A stretch of 11,461 bases of DNA from a virus. The notes beneath the pieces are model-generated. The model searched no databases and had not been told where the DNA came from. It saw only the letters and a list, made by a program, of their open reading frames with translations. A program made the position numbers and the translations under genes. Positions 3,525-10,062 of this stretch are shown here, piece after piece (within the stretch, counting starts at the first letter, position 1; every line of letters starts with the position of its first letter). Location of the stretch: UHGV virus genome UHGV-1556960; one strand, written 5' to 3'.

Positions 3525-3541
3525 AGAATTATTAGAGCAAT
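3525..3541 (-). promoter_or_regulatory. C1 operator (Op99-type, distal, reverse orientation)
   Basis: Plus strand AGAATTATTAGAGCAAT is 15/17 against the reverse complement of ATTGCTCTAATAAATTT. Confidence 0.6.
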
Positions 3542-3601: not shown

Positions 3602-3630
3602 TTGACAATTGCTCTAATAAATTATAGTTT
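3602..3630 (+). promoter_or_regulatory. Promoter with embedded C1 operator upstream of coi-c1
   Basis: TTGACA (3602-3607) is followed directly by ATTGCTCTAATAAATTA (3608-3624, 16/17 to consensus), with a TATAGT/ATAGTT -10-like element overlapping the operator's 3' end. Confidence 0.6.
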
Positions 3631-3862: not shown

Positions 3863-4072
3863 ATGGCTTTCATTCAACCAACCATCGACGACGTTAGACA
3901 TTGCTCTAACGCTTTATCTGTAGACCCTGCCGAAACCGACGCTGCCCGCGCCATTGCTGAACACTACTCAAAGATATCCAATCAGGAGTACCGCATCACC
4001 CAAGACGACCTGGATGACCTCACTGACACAATCGAATATCTCATGGCAACTAACCAGTTAGACTCACAATAA
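3863..4072 (+). CDS. coi: Coi, C1 inactivator, 69 aa
   Basis: 69-aa ORF immediately upstream of c1 on the same strand, with a GTGAGG SD. Size and position match P1 coi. Confidence 0.85.
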   Translation: MAFIQPTIDDVRHCSNALSVDPAETDAARAIAEHYSKISNQEYRITQDDLDDLTDTIEYLMATNQLDSQ

Positions 4073-4115
4073 ATGCACTAATAAATCTATTATTTTTGTT
4101 TGATCCCTCTATAAT
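4072..4115 (+). promoter_or_regulatory. c1-proximal C1 operator variant plus TATAAT -10 (autoregulatory promoter region)
   Basis: AAATGCACTAATAAATCT (4072-4088; 14/17 to consensus, GCAC core variant) overlaps the coi stop codon. A consensus TATAAT lies at 4110-4115, and GGAGGAGG precedes the c1 ATG. Confidence 0.5.
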
Positions 4116-5066: not shown

Positions 5067-6182
5067 TTATTCAGCCGCCACCGGTTTTAACAAGCCAGCA
5101 TCGAGCAGTTTACGCGTCAACCACTGTTGGCCTTTCCCCGTTAATTGGGGCGTCAGCCGTATCTGGTAGCCCTCTTCATCATCCAGCACCACTTCTTTCA
5201 CTGTGAAATATCCGGCGTTTATGTACTGCTGGAACGGCACATTTTTACGTCCACCGGACGCAATCAGAATGCCGTTCTCCCGTAACCAGGCAAACAGCGC
5301 ATTTTGTTTAAGTCCAACGACCTTTGCAAAATTCCCAATCAGGATCCCCTTAGCCACTGATACCCGGTCGGCAAAATCGACTTTGGGGGCTGCGGCCACC
5401 AGCTGCTGATTTAGCTGATGGGCTTTCTGTTCCAGAAGTTGCTTTTGTTCAGCCAGTTCGGCAGCAAGGCGCAGAGCTTCTGGAAGCGTCTGGGGGATTG
5501 CGATCGGTTGCTGTTCTTTTTGTCGGAAGTAGCTGTCTTCCAGTTTTTCAAAGAATGCCCATGCCTGATCGGTTTCGATCATTTTAGCGTGGCGGGCTGC
5601 GCCGCGTTCCGTCCAGAGGATGAGTGAGCGGGCTTTAGGAGAGATAGGATTTTGTGAGTTACTTAAAGTCACCCGCAAATTGTTCAAATCATCTCCAATA
5701 ACTTTATAGAAATGCTTGCCTTCACAAAAACGTTCAGCATTACGGGAAAAGTTCTTCTTGATGTTATCCGCATCTGTCCCATACCCCTTAGCAAGGATCT
5801 TAGTTGTCACTACACGCACTCCCAGCCATTCCAGAACGGGAATTTCATCAGACTGATTCTGAACAACCACCAGCTCCGATTCCTGAACTGAAGGTGCATG
5901 AGTTTTTTCTGATTTAACGTTAGTTGCTTTCATTCTGTGTGCCTCCTTGCGTGTTTCGGCTGCGACGGTTGCGTAATTCAGATGCCCCTGTTCGAGCAGG
6001 TATTCGCGGATATCAGACAACAGAATGCGGTGAACAGCGTTCTTGTCCTTTCTCCGGTAAAGTTGTTTGGTGATCATGAAGTAGTTGGCAATAACGCCCG
6101 GTATATCCCTGGTACTGATACAGGATGTGTGCTGTTCAATTGCCTCAATCATTTCTTCACGGGTGACTAATGACGTTCTCAT
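5067..6182 (-). CDS. ant1: Antirepressor (Ant1/Ant2-type), 371 aa, with an in-frame internal start giving a nested 288-aa product
   Basis: The C-terminal region (...FADRVSVAKGILIGNFAKVVGLKQNALFAWLRENGILIASGGRKNVPFQQYINAGYF...) looks like a phage antirepressor KilAC/ANT domain, and the middle resembles a Bro-N/ORF6N-type domain. The start overlaps the icd stop (ATGA), with AGGAGGG in the icd 3' end. An in-frame ATG at 5931-5933 is preceded by AAGGAGG; the two products would be about 41 and 32 kDa, as described for P1 Ant1/Ant2. Confidence 0.8.
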   Translation of the reverse strand: MRTSLVTREEMIEAIEQHTSCISTRDIPGVIANYFMITKQLYRRKDKNAVHRILLSDIREYLLEQGHLNYATVAAETRKEAHRMKATNVKSEKTHAPSVQESELVVVQNQSDEIPVLEWLGVRVVTTKILAKGYGTDADNIKKNFSRNAERFCEGKHFYKVIGDDLNNLRVTLSNSQNPISPKARSLILWTERGAARHAKMIETDQAWAFFEKLEDSYFRQKEQQPIAIPQTLPEALRLAAELAEQKQLLEQKAHQLNQQLVAAAPKVDFADRVSVAKGILIGNFAKVVGLKQNALFAWLRENGILIASGGRKNVPFQQYINAGYFTVKEVVLDDEEGYQIRLTPQLTGKGQQWLTRKLLDAGLLKPVAAE

Positions 6183-6400
6183 AGTCCCTCCTGAGCAGAA
6201 GCGTTAACAGGGAGGCACCAGTAACTGAGAGAGTTGCGCGAATCAGTGGAAAAGCGGGCAGAGAAAATGCAGGGAGCGTCAGGAAGCTGAGAACGGGCCT
6301 CATCTTCTGTCGGTGCAATAACGAAGTGATAGTGACGTTTCTGGCAGGAATAGAAGCGCCAAATGAATTCAGGATGAGTTGGGGTAGGGACAGTAGCCAT
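6179..6400 (-). CDS. icd: Icd-like small protein (cell division inhibitor family), 73 aa, translationally coupled to ant
   Basis: 73-aa ORF with an AGGAGG SD 8 nt upstream; its stop overlaps the ant start by 4 nt. Architecture matches the P1 immI icd-ant pair. Confidence 0.65.
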   Translation of the reverse strand: MATVPTPTHPEFIWRFYSCQKRHYHFVIAPTEDEARSQLPDAPCIFSARFSTDSRNSLSYWCLPVNASAQEGL

Positions 6401-6430
6401 AATGGCAGCCTCCTTTGACTAAGTTAAGGA

Positions 6431-6720
6431 GCTACCGCGTGAGGTCTCAATCTCAATGGCGGTAGCACTGACTGGGTTGAGACTACCGGCGTCAAAGGGA
6501 ACCGGCCTGCCTTTCGGCAGCCCAGCCAGCACTACCATTGATTTCGGAGCTAAACGCTACGTATGGCTGTGCGATGGCATGACACAAAAAAAGACGCTTT
6601 CGGCGTCTGTGTCGCCTTTGACATTATCCGGGGTCTCAATCCCGGCACCCGTTTTACTGAGGTGCCTGATAAGCATAAACCGAAAATGCCTCAAGGCGCA
6701 AGAGGTCAGGCTCAATGTAA
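6431..6720 (-). ncRNA. Leader/small-RNA region of the icd-ant operon with c4-like antisense features; exact RNA ends not determinable
   Basis: On the minus-strand transcript: a hairpin with UUGAGAC in its loop (plus 6628-6645), an intrinsic terminator (plus 6585-6608), the complementary GUCUCAA (plus 6477-6483), and an 8-bp-stem hairpin with AUUGAGAUUGAGACC in its loop (plus 6431-6466) about 30 nt before the icd SD. Confidence 0.4.
6585..6608 (-). terminator. Intrinsic terminator inside the icd-ant leader
   Basis: Minus-strand RNA AGACGC-CGAAA-GCGUCU followed by U7. Confidence 0.55.
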
Positions 6721-6739
6721 CATCGGTAGTTAAAAAACA

Positions 6740-6756
6740 CAATTTATTAGAGCAAA
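6740..6756 (-). promoter_or_regulatory. C1 operator at the head of the icd-ant operon (Op51-like function), just after the pacB stop
   Basis: Plus strand CAATTTATTAGAGCAAA is 15/17 against the reverse complement of the operator consensus. Confidence 0.6.
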
Positions 6757-6759
6757 TAT

Positions 6760-8244
6760 TCATTCATTAAGCCATGCCAGAGCTTCATCAACCTGCGCTT
6801 CGTCTTCGACGCTAAGCACTTCATCCTGGGGAACATAATCCGCCAGCATAGCGAAACAATATGTATCCCAATGGTCTGGTGAGTGCAGGTTGAGTTTTTT
6901 CTTCATATCCTCCTTACTCATCACCTTCCATTGACCTGCGGAGTTAATCCCTACAGGGATTTTCGACGCTTCCTCAATAGTTTCATTACCCTTATCCAGT
7001 CTCATACGACCAGATTTTACGGCCTCTGCGGCTTGAACGTTGGCATAAGCACGTTTATCAAAGTACAGGCTCTTATCTTCACGGCTATGCATCTTTTTAC
7101 CCCAGCGTATACGCTGTACGGTAATACCATAATACTCGTACATCAGATCCGCCGTTGCTTTACCCAGGCCATCGCCGTCTATCGCTATGGTGATATTGGG
7201 GAATCGCTCAGGATTACATTCTGCGAAAATTTTGGCGGCAAGCTGCGTTTCTGTAACGTCTGTGTATTCCAGCATTCGATAGTTGATTACACGGCGTTTA
7301 TTTCGCTGGCCGGACACCATCATGATATTGATAACGGACTTATCCCGTCCTGTACCACCAGCAACGTCCACACATGCAAGCCAGCCCCATCCTTTGGCAA
7401 TCTTGACTTTCCGCCGCGTCGCACGTTCAACCTCATCACGTCCAAGAAGGAATCCGTCCTGTGATTTAGGGAATAGGCCGCGTACCTTAATCATGTACAT
7501 AGGGTTATCACGCCCGCCGTACTCCGCCAGCTTCATTTTGATAAATTCTGGCGTTACCAGCGGTGATTCCTCACTATTAAGCGTGATCGCCGTATAAACG
7601 CCATCTGGGTTACCAGGACGCTTGGCCAGTTTATGGTGAGTATCGTAGAAATAGCCGCTTGGGCGTGTAGGCTGTGACAGTAATAAGATGCGGTTATCCT
7701 GTCCGGTAAGAGCACCGGTGATGATACCGAAAGCTCTATCACTGACACCGGAGGCTTCATCGATAATATACAGAAGATGATCTGCGTGTTCACCGGCGAG
7801 AGCTTCTTCACTTCCCAGACGAAAGCCCTTCGGTACTACAGTCCATACACCTTTACCAGTAACCTCATAGAAAGCGGTTTCTGTCAGAACAAAATAATCA
7901 GCAAGCCATGGAAAACGGCTGGTGGCAGTAGCCCAGTTTATCTTGATGTACTTGAATATACCGGTCATTACCTGCTGAATTTTGTTCGCAACGATAATGG
8001 CTCGGGCACCGGGATACATGATTATGAACAACATGATCATGATAGAAGTCATGTCTGATTTCCCGGTACCGTGGCCAGACGAAACAGATGTCTTGCTACC
8101 CTGTTCCTGCACAGACTCAATAATCAGATCCTGCTGCCAGGTAGGTGTTTTGCCGAACAAAACATCAGCGGCCGCAATCCAGTCATAACGATATAGCGCC
8201 ACCAGCTCGCGCCAACGTGGATCCGTTACGCAACTTCTGGCCAT
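6760..8244 (-). CDS. pacB: PacB, terminase large (ATPase/nuclease) subunit, 494 aa
   Basis: 494-aa ORF directly downstream of pacA with a 1-nt stop/start overlap. Walker A-like GHGTGKS and Walker B-like [10 protein letters not shown] motifs are present. Size matches P1 PacB. Confidence 0.9.
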
Positions 8245-9437
8245 TAATCATCATCCCCGTATAGCTTGCGGGTAACTTCTTCGTCTTCCTCCTCGTCTTC
8301 GTCCAGGTCTTGTTCCAGCCATGGGTCGTTTGATACACCTTCAGTATCAACATCTCCATAACCGCCTGTATCAACGATATCGGCGATTTCTTCCCTACGC
8401 TGCTCAATCCACAATGCGGCATCGGCGCGGCGGTTGGCGGCCCGTTCTCGTGCGATTTTATCCAGATCTTCAAGTGATGGAGCGCCAGATGCTGTTTGGT
8501 TTTCCTCATCATCGGTATTGGTCTTAGGAGCACGCAGATCGGCTTTGATTTGCTCCAGCATCAGGGGCGGCACTTTCCCGCCATGCGCCTCGATGAATTC
8601 AGCTGCTTCCAGCACTGACCAGTTATTTTCACGCTTTCGTTCGTATGCCAGCTTAACAATGCCAGCTTGCCCCATAGACAAAGCGTGCTTTTCCGCCTCC
8701 CGGCTTTCTTTTCGATAGTTATTCCGGATGCTGTAAATGGTGTTGATCAGGCTGCTTATCTGCGCGGAACAGCTGTTTAGCATGCTCGCGATACGGTATT
8801 CAGGCGGAGTACCTTCATCATCGTCTTTTTGCTGATCGCGCATTTCCTGCACCAGGCGAATACACGTATCCCTGGCGTTCTCCAGCATAAGGAGATGAGA
8901 AAGAGACTTTTCCAGAAGAGTGGTTTCCAGAACATCGGCCCCGGACCGACGCAACATAGCGCGCGCGGCCTTCCGCGCTTCAACGTTATCTATCAGGTAA
9001 TCGCCAGCTTCGAATTCAAAGCGTTCACCATCATCATCCAGGGTGTCGCGTTCCAGGCGATCACGTAAGGTCCGGTGGGCGCGGGTGATCACGTCATGAT
9101 CATCTGAACGATCATTTATGCGCTTATTTTGGCGCTTCGCATTCTCGACTGCGGCACTGACAACGGCATTAACTCTCTGTTTTTCCGCTATTTCAGCCGC
9201 AATATGATCACCTGCATGTTGATCATTAGAGTGATCAATGATCATGCTTTTTAGTGGCTTCCTGACTGGCTTATTTGGCTTGCGGCTGTCCGCAGTCCTG
9301 GTGTCTTCTTTGAAGGCACGGAGATAACGACGTGCGGTATTAGGGTTAAGATTAAACTCGGCGGCATACTGTGCGATGGTGTAACCACCATCTCGCGCCA
9401 GGCGAGCAAAATTCTTCTTGTGATCGTCCCAGGTCAC
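8244..9437 (-). CDS. pacA: PacA, terminase small / pac-recognition subunit, 397 aa, GTG start
   Basis: 397-aa ORF containing the pac hexamer cluster in its 5' part. Acidic C-terminal tail. GTG start at 9435-9437 preceded by AAGGAAG and an in-frame TAA. Confidence 0.9.
9086..9244. other. pac: pac packaging site: 3 + 4 TGATCA/G hexamers flanking a roughly 90-bp core
   Basis: Hexamers at 9086-9091, 9097-9102 and 9109-9114 (reverse orientation), then 9205-9210, 9220-9225, 9232-9237 and 9239-9244. Each contains a Dam GATC. The 7-hexamer, roughly 160-bp layout inside pacA matches the described P1 pac site. Confidence 0.85.
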
Positions 9438-10012: not shown

Positions 10013-10062
10013 CGACGAATATAATACCCTCGATTAAATAAATGGCAATACATTAGAGCAAT
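10013..10062 (-). promoter_or_regulatory. lpa promoter with overlapping C1 operator
   Basis: Minus strand ATTGCTCTAATGTATTG (plus 10046-10062; 14/17) overlaps a TTGCCA -35, with TATTAT as -10 after a 16-nt spacer. Lies between the stop of the 347-aa ORF and lpa. Confidence 0.5.

Follow-up and report, generated by a model that had tools for sequence, protein, structure and literature searches.

A predicted second immI-type antisense RNA control unit of separate specificity in the pacB-c1 interval of an RCS47-like P1 phage-plasmid

Regulation by c4 has been known since 1990, and Citron and Schuster are said to have shown, in 1990 and 1992, that c4 of phage P1 is an RNA. In the P1 GenBank record, the immI operon is annotated in the order Oc4, promoters P2c4 and P1c4, a1, b1, c4 (L003 3344-3420), a2, b2, icd and ant1/2, and b2 bears the label 'repression of icd ant translation'. 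In phage N15, the small CA RNA of immA is reportedly processed from the leader of an icd-antirepressor operon and represses that operon, and Ravin and colleagues are said to have reported in 1999 that it acts through termination. The immunity of P4 (seqA/seqB/seqC) relies on antisense-dependent transcription termination that controls replication genes and not an antirepressor. Here we describe a region of the c4 type in an 11,461-nucleotide (nt) stretch of virus genome UHGV-1556960 (hereafter the window), which is an RCS47-like P1 phage-plasmid and whose positions 6380-6770 matched Escherichia phage RCS47 at 99.2% identity. Judging from the family membership, anatomy, complementarity and covariation observed here, this region is very probably the RNA control unit of a second immI-type immunity operon (leader-c4-icd-ant), in which c4 would act in trans to silence icd and ant. 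The system itself was already known; what is new is the specificity of this copy and its genomic location, and public records leave it without annotation.

A first-pass annotation, made from the sequence alone, had drawn attention to a sense/antisense/sense arrangement of one 7-nt motif on the minus-strand transcript. We found that TTGAGAC indeed occurs exactly three times in the window, twice in the sense of the transcript (6633-6639 and 6444-6450, minus strand) and once as the complement GUCUCAA on the transcript (6477-6483), in the places that had been given for them and nowhere else. Interleaved with this triad was a second one, made of GUCAAAGG at 6615-6622 and 6412-6419 (minus strand) and its complement CCUUUGAC on the transcript at 6491-6498, so that the complementarity, which had been put at 7 nt only, actually comprises 7 nt (the a blocks) plus 8-9 nt (the b blocks). 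The elements concerned are as follows.

6633-6639, minus strand: a1 target UUGAGAC, in the 8-nt loop of the CGGG/CCCG leader hairpin 2 (6644-6629); co-varies with a'
6615-6623, minus strand: b1 target (U)GUCAAAGG, complementary to b' and co-varying with it
6455-6542, minus strand: c4 antisense RNA (Rfam RF01695), 75.4 bits (gathering score 45), full-length match (1-87/87)
6490-6498, minus strand: b' recognition block CCUUUGAC(G), in or near the loop of c4 hairpin 2
6477-6483, minus strand: a' recognition block GUCUCAA, in the single-stranded c4 junction
6431-6466, minus strand: alternative hairpin with the 8-base-pair (bp) stem GCUACCGC:GCGGUAGC, arms 6466-6459 and 6438-6431, a2 in a 20-nt loop, z = -4.55
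6444-6450, minus strand: a2 target UUGAGAC, 7/7 complementary to a' and co-varying with it
6412-6419, minus strand: b2 target GUCAAAGG, 8/8 complementary to b', overlapping the icd Shine-Dalgarno (SD) sequence AAGGAGG (6415-6409)

It might be asked whether the triads are a product of chance, or a decayed remnant without function. The window-wide count of TTGAGAC, taken alone, was not significant, with at least three copies in 30 of 200 shuffles, and this is the one observation that fits such a view. However, the GUCAAAGG/CCUUUGAC triad was matched in only 2 of 200 shuffles, and the interleaving of two triads was rarer still. When the 323-nt leader was subjected to 5000 dinucleotide-preserving shuffles, a 7-mer triad of any kind within 200 nt appeared in 1.6% of them, an 8-mer triad of any kind in 0.1% and two separate triads in 0.04% (p about 4e-4). 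Besides, two Rfam models (C4 and isrK) scored above threshold in this region, the pairing co-varies perfectly across 11 recognition types, and the window-type module is kept in 421 of 5426 complete Escherichia coli genomes, where it is nearly always plasmid-borne. With all of this against it, an origin by chance or decay is hardly credible.

The layout had been proposed to be that of a c4-type antisense RNA, and comparison bore this out: the full-length C4 match lies between the two UUGAGAC copies, and the elements correspond one by one, and in the same order, to those of annotated P1 immI. The matched stretch alone folded into the family structure, a long closing stem around two hairpins (minimum free energy structure identical to the centroid, -46.5 kcal/mol, z = -5.26), with AGUCUCAA unpaired in the junction. 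Since the c4 match sits between the UUGAGAC copies and leaves a' single-stranded and b' exposed in a loop, the middle element is the regulator and both UUGAGAC copies are its targets, a1 and a2. Which was which had been thought undecidable from the sequence, but sequence and comparison together settle it. Folding also placed both target copies in hairpin loops, as the first-pass annotation had described, one in a loop of 8 nt (6644-6629) and the other in a loop of 20 nt (6466-6431); the second hairpin, said to have an 8-bp stem about 30 nt before the icd SD, has an exact 8-bp stem 31 nt before GGAGG. This alternative stem and the closing stem of c4 share six nucleotides (6466-6461, in the 3' arm of the latter), and the two structures are therefore mutually exclusive. 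The a2-showing hairpin was kept with compensatory changes in five lineages, namely the window, L004, P1 (L003), Gifsy-1 (L084) and P4 (L088), the stem variants being GCUACCGC:GCGGUAGC, CCACCGC:GCGGUGG, UCACCACC:GGUGGUGA, GCUAUCGCC:GGCGAUAGC and CCUGC:GCAGG, which suggests a conserved switch in the precursor. On alignment to the P1 77-mer (in A1, a MAFFT alignment of whole leaders), mature c4 is predicted to extend from G6536 to C6458 (79 nt), and homology with a family whose members measure about 77 nt and have RNase P acting at the 5' end suggests that the precursor would be processed to a stable RNA.

To compare related loci, we scanned IMG/VR with the Icd protein and obtained 80 loci (L004-L083), 78 of which had usable leader regions (about 330 nt upstream of icd); all 78 were parsed. 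Because alignment A1 shifted the P1 group by 1-2 columns at a'/b' and the L076 sequence includes Ns, the six sites were extracted by flanking anchors that used position only and not complementarity, and the equal-length concatenations were aligned (A2) for pair counting. The 78 leaders fell into 11 recognition types, and at least 14 codes were obtained once P7 (together with the canonical c4 of RCS47), Gifsy-1 and P4 were added. In every type, a1 and a2 complemented a' at 7 of 7 positions (with one G-U wobble in one type), and b1 and b2 complemented b' at 8-9 of 9. For the leader targets (a1:a' and b1:b'), 96.0% of cells were paired, 11 of 16 pairs had changed on both sides, and the covariation score was 0.69 (0.22 in shuffles); for the downstream targets (a':a2 and b':b2), the corresponding values were 97.2%, 12 of 16 and 0.77 (0.26 in shuffles). 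Controls in which the partner was slid by 1-3 columns had only 22-45% of cells paired, and non-cognate combinations formed clearly shorter and weaker helices than cognate ones. Sequence comparison thus provides strong evidence that c4 pairs in vivo with both target pairs, and equally strong evidence that the a and b sequences act as a private recognition code.

The window code, UUGAGAC/GUCAAAGG, was common to 8 IMG/VR loci and RCS47, and the D6 code was UUGAGAC/GCAAAAGG. The codes are combinatorial, as all four combinations of a = UUGAGAC or UUGGAAC with b = GUCAAAGG or GCAAAAGG occurred. The six sites are interspersed along the transcript (a1 b1 ... b' a' a2 ... b2), and yet none of the 78 leaders was a mismatched intermediate. 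Two further candidate sites were rejected. One was a third 'a' site, UUGAGGC, in the 5' extension, which the L004 group keeps although its 'a' code is UUGGCCU. The other was the UUGAGA directly 5' of a2 (a tandem UUGAGA-UUGAGAC at 6456-6444) as a co-varying site; loci of the L032 type keep UUGAGA and have UUGGAAC as a2.

The part of the transcript upstream of c4 contains two further features.

6587-6665, minus strand: leader RNA, IsrK-like and equivalent to c4-a1b1, with hairpin 1, hairpin 2 showing a1, then b1 and a terminator
6586-6608, minus strand: leader intrinsic terminator AGACGC-CGAAA-GCGUCU plus U run, stem 6608-6592; found by scan and part of the Rfam isrK match

A hairpin followed by an intrinsic terminator had been noted here before. 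Both are present, the scan having recovered the stem and its U run, but the leader is more than these two parts, being a homologue of the IsrK small RNA and of c4-a1b1. Against Rfam isrK (RF01394) it scored 59.5 bits (gathering score 50) over model positions 1-77/77, including the terminal terminator. In Gifsy-1 (L084 34073-34316, minus strand), an isrK match of 79 bits overlapped a c4-a1b1 match of 48.1 bits, with a C4 RNA of 69 bits 26 nt downstream; P4 showed the same arrangement (isrK 60.8 bits, c4-a1b1 44.1 bits, and C4 74.9 bits at the CI RNA), and the P1 leader scored 51.0 bits as c4-a1b1 and, at the same place, 35 bits as isrK, which is below threshold. As the two models match the same place in P1, Gifsy-1 and P4, the isrK and c4-a1b1 families describe one element, consisting of two hairpins with a1 in the second loop, b1 and an intrinsic terminator. 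Compensatory changes preserve the stem of this terminator in P1, Gifsy-1, P4 and the L004 group (GACGC/GCGUC, CACGC/GCGUG, CCGCA/UGCGG).

The Gifsy-1 system has been studied by experiment. Hershko-Shalev et al. 2016 (PMC4825925) described an 'orf45' with its AUG at nt 107, a second AUG at nt 119 and a stop overlapping the AUG of the antirepressor gene anrP, and reported that short IsrK in trans raised anrP translation more than 100-fold. We found that 'orf45', when mapped onto the sequence, is exactly C4 RNA plus a2 plus b2, and that STnc1160, a processed species of about 80 nt from 'orf45', fits c4. The published compensatory pairs G28A/C162U and G31A/C159U map to a1 (U26-U32, UUGGCGU) and a' (A158-A164, ACGCCAA), so that the a1:a' pairing of Gifsy-1 has been validated experimentally. 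The same paper likens STnc1160 to the CI RNA of P4, and the phrase 'phage P1' is absent from it (PMC4825925); two reviews from 2025 still handle IsrK and c4 separately, and among the papers searched the name 'c4-a1b1' came up in one.

These data also allow the window to be read the other way round, with the short leader RNA as the primary trans activator and the c4 region mainly as its target, a 39-codon upstream open reading frame (ORF) like 'orf45' whose translation the leader RNA would unlock and which would be coupled to icd and ant. Such a reading agrees with the leader score above the isrK threshold and with the strong activation by short IsrK, which orf45 start-codon mutants lower (PMC4825925), and in several lineages an ORF from the conserved c4 AUG is open to near the downstream start. 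However, the frame, length and end point of that ORF vary between lineages, and in P1 it is the b' loop itself that closes the frame opened by the first AUG. The Gifsy-1 'orf45' itself coincides with a Rfam C4 RNA and a2/b2, and it gives rise to STnc1160, a stable RNA of about 80 nt that accumulates after processing (PMC4825925). Moreover, a pure activator model has no need for the covariation of b2 with the c4 loop or for its overlap with the icd SD. We therefore regard a leader-activated upstream ORF as rather unlikely in the window, and retain c4 as the regulator.

With c4 as the regulator, the module may be pictured as follows. Transcription would begin at a promoter operated by C1 and, from a probable second promoter, at the first base of the leader. 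Part of the transcripts would end at the leader terminator and yield an RNA of about 75-80 nt carrying a1 and b1, and the remaining ones would read through into c4-icd-ant. From the read-through transcript c4 (about 79 nt) would be cut out, with b' in a loop and a' in the junction. Acting in trans, it would pair with a2 and b2 and occlude the icd ribosome-binding site, blocking icd translation; the antirepressor would likewise not be made, because ant would be coupled to icd through their ATGA overlap. From the overlap of b2 with the SD, together with covariation, c4 is expected to repress icd translation in trans, with a polar effect on ant. The same c4 blocks would pair with a1/b1, and the leader, either in cis or as the short terminated RNA, would compete for c4. 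Such competition is the most likely consequence of a1/b1 pairing and would set a repression threshold, as IsrK does in Gifsy-1. The private a/b code would keep the module orthogonal to the P7-type c4 module of the same phage. By homology with P1 we infer processing, the translational block and icd-ant coupling, and by homology also the sponge action of the leader.

Pairing of c4 with a1/b1 and a2/b2 on the nascent RNA could instead cause premature termination, at the leader terminator and/or within icd, with no block of the ribosome. This is how P4 immunity is known to act, and P4 has the same isrK-like leader, a C4-family CI RNA, an a2 hairpin and a b2/SD element. In the window, a1/b1 lies immediately 5' of the intrinsic terminator, and when a1/b1 was blocked in silico the probability of the terminator hairpin rose from 0.85 to about 1.0, a small effect on what is a thermodynamic proxy; across four lineages the rise, again modest, was from 0.65-0.9 to about 1.0 and was seen in all of them. 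However, the terminator already forms in the unconstrained fold, and P1 and P7, which both backbone and proteins show to be the nearest relatives, have b2 annotated as a translation-repression site. In P1, Biere, Citron and Schuster are said to have found in 1992 that the drop in ant transcription is secondary to the translational block. Taken together, these observations make control through termination distinctly unlikely as the main mode here. With regard to a1/b1 alone, the Gifsy-1 data favour a sponge and the P4 literature favours antisense-promoted termination, and the two roles would be compatible.

Several points weigh against translational silencing by c4 as we propose it. The P4 homologue acts by termination rather than by a translational block (PMC4825925, discussion), and the mechanism is therefore not readable from family membership alone. 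The P1 record itself labels a1 and b1 'putative'. Scored against c4-a1b1 (RF03163), the window leader reached 22.3 bits, below the gathering score of 46.7 (E = 0.0018, 6678-6625); both hairpins and the a1 loop are present despite this low score, and the leader is simply nearer to the isrK seed than to that of c4-a1b1. Finally, a scan of positions 6100-7000 with the sigma-70 consensus found no promoter, and the two candidate promoters below were read by eye against P1 and Gifsy-1.

6740-6756, minus strand: C1 operator-like site TTTGCTCTAATAAATTG, 2 mismatches to the P1 operator consensus, overlapping the pacB stop region and the upstream -35
6714-6742, minus strand: candidate upstream promoter TTGTGT-N17-(TGt)TACATT, read by eye by analogy with P1 P2c4/P51a
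6672-6701, minus strand: candidate second promoter TTGCGC-N18-TATGCT, predicted to start at about 6665, the first base of the leader

The operator-like site occupies the same position as Oc4/Op51 in P1, and by this analogy the upstream promoter would be under C1 control. C1 operator-like 17-mers were found at 5 places in the window, against 0.03 expected by chance. The four others, with 1-3 mismatches, were at 3525-3541 (minus strand), 3608-3624 (plus), 4072-4088 (plus) and 10046-10062 (minus), close to the coi/imc region and upstream of both c1 and lpa, and P1 has its sites likewise. The -10 of the second candidate aligned in A1 with the TATATT of the Gifsy-1 isrK promoter, and the -10 of P1 P1c4/P51b aligned a few bases downstream of it. 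The way in which the mutants are numbered in PMC4825925 implies that Gifsy-1 isrK transcription starts where the Rfam isrK match begins, and in the window a start at 6665 would be the equivalent.

A broader proposal is more tentative, and we think it somewhat more likely to fail than to hold. Every c4/CI-type module might be a three-RNA switch, in which a terminator-released a1/b1 leader, as an 'anti-antisense' RNA of the IsrK type, titrates c4 and derepresses the antirepressor. The 'orf45' of Gifsy-1 would then be the c4 RNA and activation by IsrK would be relief of c4 repression, and P1-like phage-plasmids would run two or three switches in parallel, made orthogonal by combinatorial a/b codes, in each of which six interleaved sites have to change together.

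Downstream of and on the c4 RNA, three reading frames are of interest.

6179-6400, minus strand: icd, cell-division inhibitor homologue of 73 amino acids, AUG at 6400; 80% identical to P1 Icd
5067-6182, minus strand: ant, antirepressor of 371 amino acids with Pfam ORF6N and KilAC/ANT domains; 54% identical to P1 Ant1
6419-6538, minus strand: ORF of 39 codons on the c4 RNA, named 'ash family protein' in RefSeq

The stop codon of icd overlaps the start codon of ant (ATGA). Ant is a mosaic. Its two ends (residues 1-100 and 228-371) share homology with P1 Ant1, at roughly 90% identity in the C-terminal part, and an ORF6N domain takes the place of the Ant1 middle. The third frame raises the question whether the regulator is a small protein of the Ash family (39 amino acids, 6538-6419), with the RNA complementarities incidental. 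In the RefSeq annotation of hundreds of E. coli plasmids, this protein coincides exactly with the c4 RNA (for example, L087 1683-1802), and the peptide scored 28.3 bits against Pfam PF10554 (Phage_ASH; cutoff 26). However, the frame is not conserved across the RNA family: the P1 and Gifsy-1 ORFs at the c4 place had no PF10554 match and are in other frames or of other lengths. Changes of specificity alter the peptide and yet always keep the RNA pairing with four distant sites. Similarly, the obsolete P4 'cI protein' coding sequence (L088 8168-8584, minus strand), which matched PF10554 with 59.7 bits, overlaps the CI RNA, and c4 of P1 is reportedly an RNA. A regulatory protein is thus most improbable, and this reading was rejected for its inconsistent frame; the 39-codon ORF is probably a shadow of the RNA gene, and PF10554 looks like the protein-family shadow of the c4/CI RNA gene. 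Other frames over the leader and c4 include mechanical ORFs at 6456-6770 (plus strand) and 6557-6763 (minus strand), of 104 and 68 amino acids, and public 'hypothetical protein' ORFs, some on the opposite strand, such as D6 orf84 (L002 2954-3253, minus strand) and two in JL22; these hypothetical ORFs are most likely spurious. In P4, an icd-like ORF (MATTLTPSHPEF...) was seen directly after the CI RNA and b2/SD (L088, about 8300-8420, minus strand). In P4 and in L004-type loci (L004, 1201 onward), the ORF from the c4 AUG runs in frame into the icd-like ORF or icd.

On the minus strand of the window, the gene order is pdcB, lpa, pacA, pacB, the leader/c4 region, icd and ant; c1 is on the plus strand after ant, and cre and ref are further along. 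The same module is present without annotation in the pacB-c1 interval of RCS47, where 'ant' is the sole annotated feature. Venturini et al. 2019 (PMC6906374) listed an antirepressor and two short hypothetical ORFs between pacB and c1, likewise in RCS47, and made no mention of an RNA in this insert. RCS47 also has a canonical immI (52621-53393, L085) with an annotated P7-type c4 whose code is a = UUAGCAG and b = GAUUGUG, and two modules were likewise found in JL22, vB_EcoM-673R5 and D6. Because the other module in the same phages has a different code, the window module is a second, paralogous immI-type copy, orthogonal to the P7-type c4 module of the phage. P1-like phage-plasmids often had two or three c4-icd-ant modules of differing a/b codes; for example, some IMG/VR contigs had three, each with a different code, and multi-module contigs lie behind L006/L076/L082, L052/L079, L061/L080, L068/L078 and L018/L072. 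One locus, L060 (IMGVR_UViG_2609459791_000005), had an internal piece of a pacB-like terminase gene joined straight to b2/SD-icd, and it lacks both leader and c4. This locus probably remains from a deletion, and antisense control would no longer reach its icd-ant.

These results leave the general understanding of c4 regulation as it was. Their main added value is comparative, namely strong covariation support for the long-'putative' a1/b1 and the link to IsrK, and a stretch that was blank or filled with spurious small ORFs in public records can now be given as a fully parsed regulatory unit. RCS47-type phage-plasmids, which are carriers of resistance genes, would have two independent antisense-guarded antirepressors, and this bears on prophage induction and on which prophages exclude each other. 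The comparison also joins four literatures that are usually separate, those of P1/P7 c4, P4 CI, Gifsy-1 IsrK and Rfam c4-a1b1.

Among the described systems, immI of P1 and P7 is the closest. It has, in the same order as the window, the C1 operator, promoter or promoters, a1, b1, a terminator-like hairpin, c4, a2, b2/SD, icd and ant. The c4 RNAs have the same fold, with b' in the hairpin-2 loop and a' in the junction, and the pairings are likewise 7 nt for 'a' and 8-9 nt for 'b'; P1 also shares the icd/ant ATGA overlap and has homologous Icd (80%) and Ant (54%) proteins. In contrast, the code is UUGAGAC/GUCAAAGG in the window, UUGACAG/GUUAGUG in P1 and UUAGCAG/GAUUGUG in P7, and the window leader shows at most about 70% identity and is recognised as isrK instead of c4-a1b1. 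The window module lies between pacB and c1, whereas P1 immI lies between sim and kilA, and the window-type module is a second copy where the canonical immI is also kept. Besides, the middle of Ant is swapped for an ORF6N domain relative to P1.

Gifsy-1 resembles the window in having a leader of the same Rfam family with an intrinsic terminator, which in the window too would give short and read-through isoforms, in having downstream of it a C4-family RNA, the sites a2 and b2/SD and a gene for an antirepressor, and in the pairing of the leader with the downstream a' region. It differs in lacking icd, so that the antirepressor follows directly, and in its code (a = UUGGCGU, b = UCACCG), and in the model published for it the c4 region is regarded as a coding ORF, with no appeal to P1 c4 (PMC4825925). 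P4 similarly has a C4-scoring CI RNA, an isrK-scoring leader, an a2-displaying hairpin, b2 fused to the SD and a downstream icd-like ORF, but it has no C1 operator and uses the code a = GUGAGAA, b = UUCACAGG.

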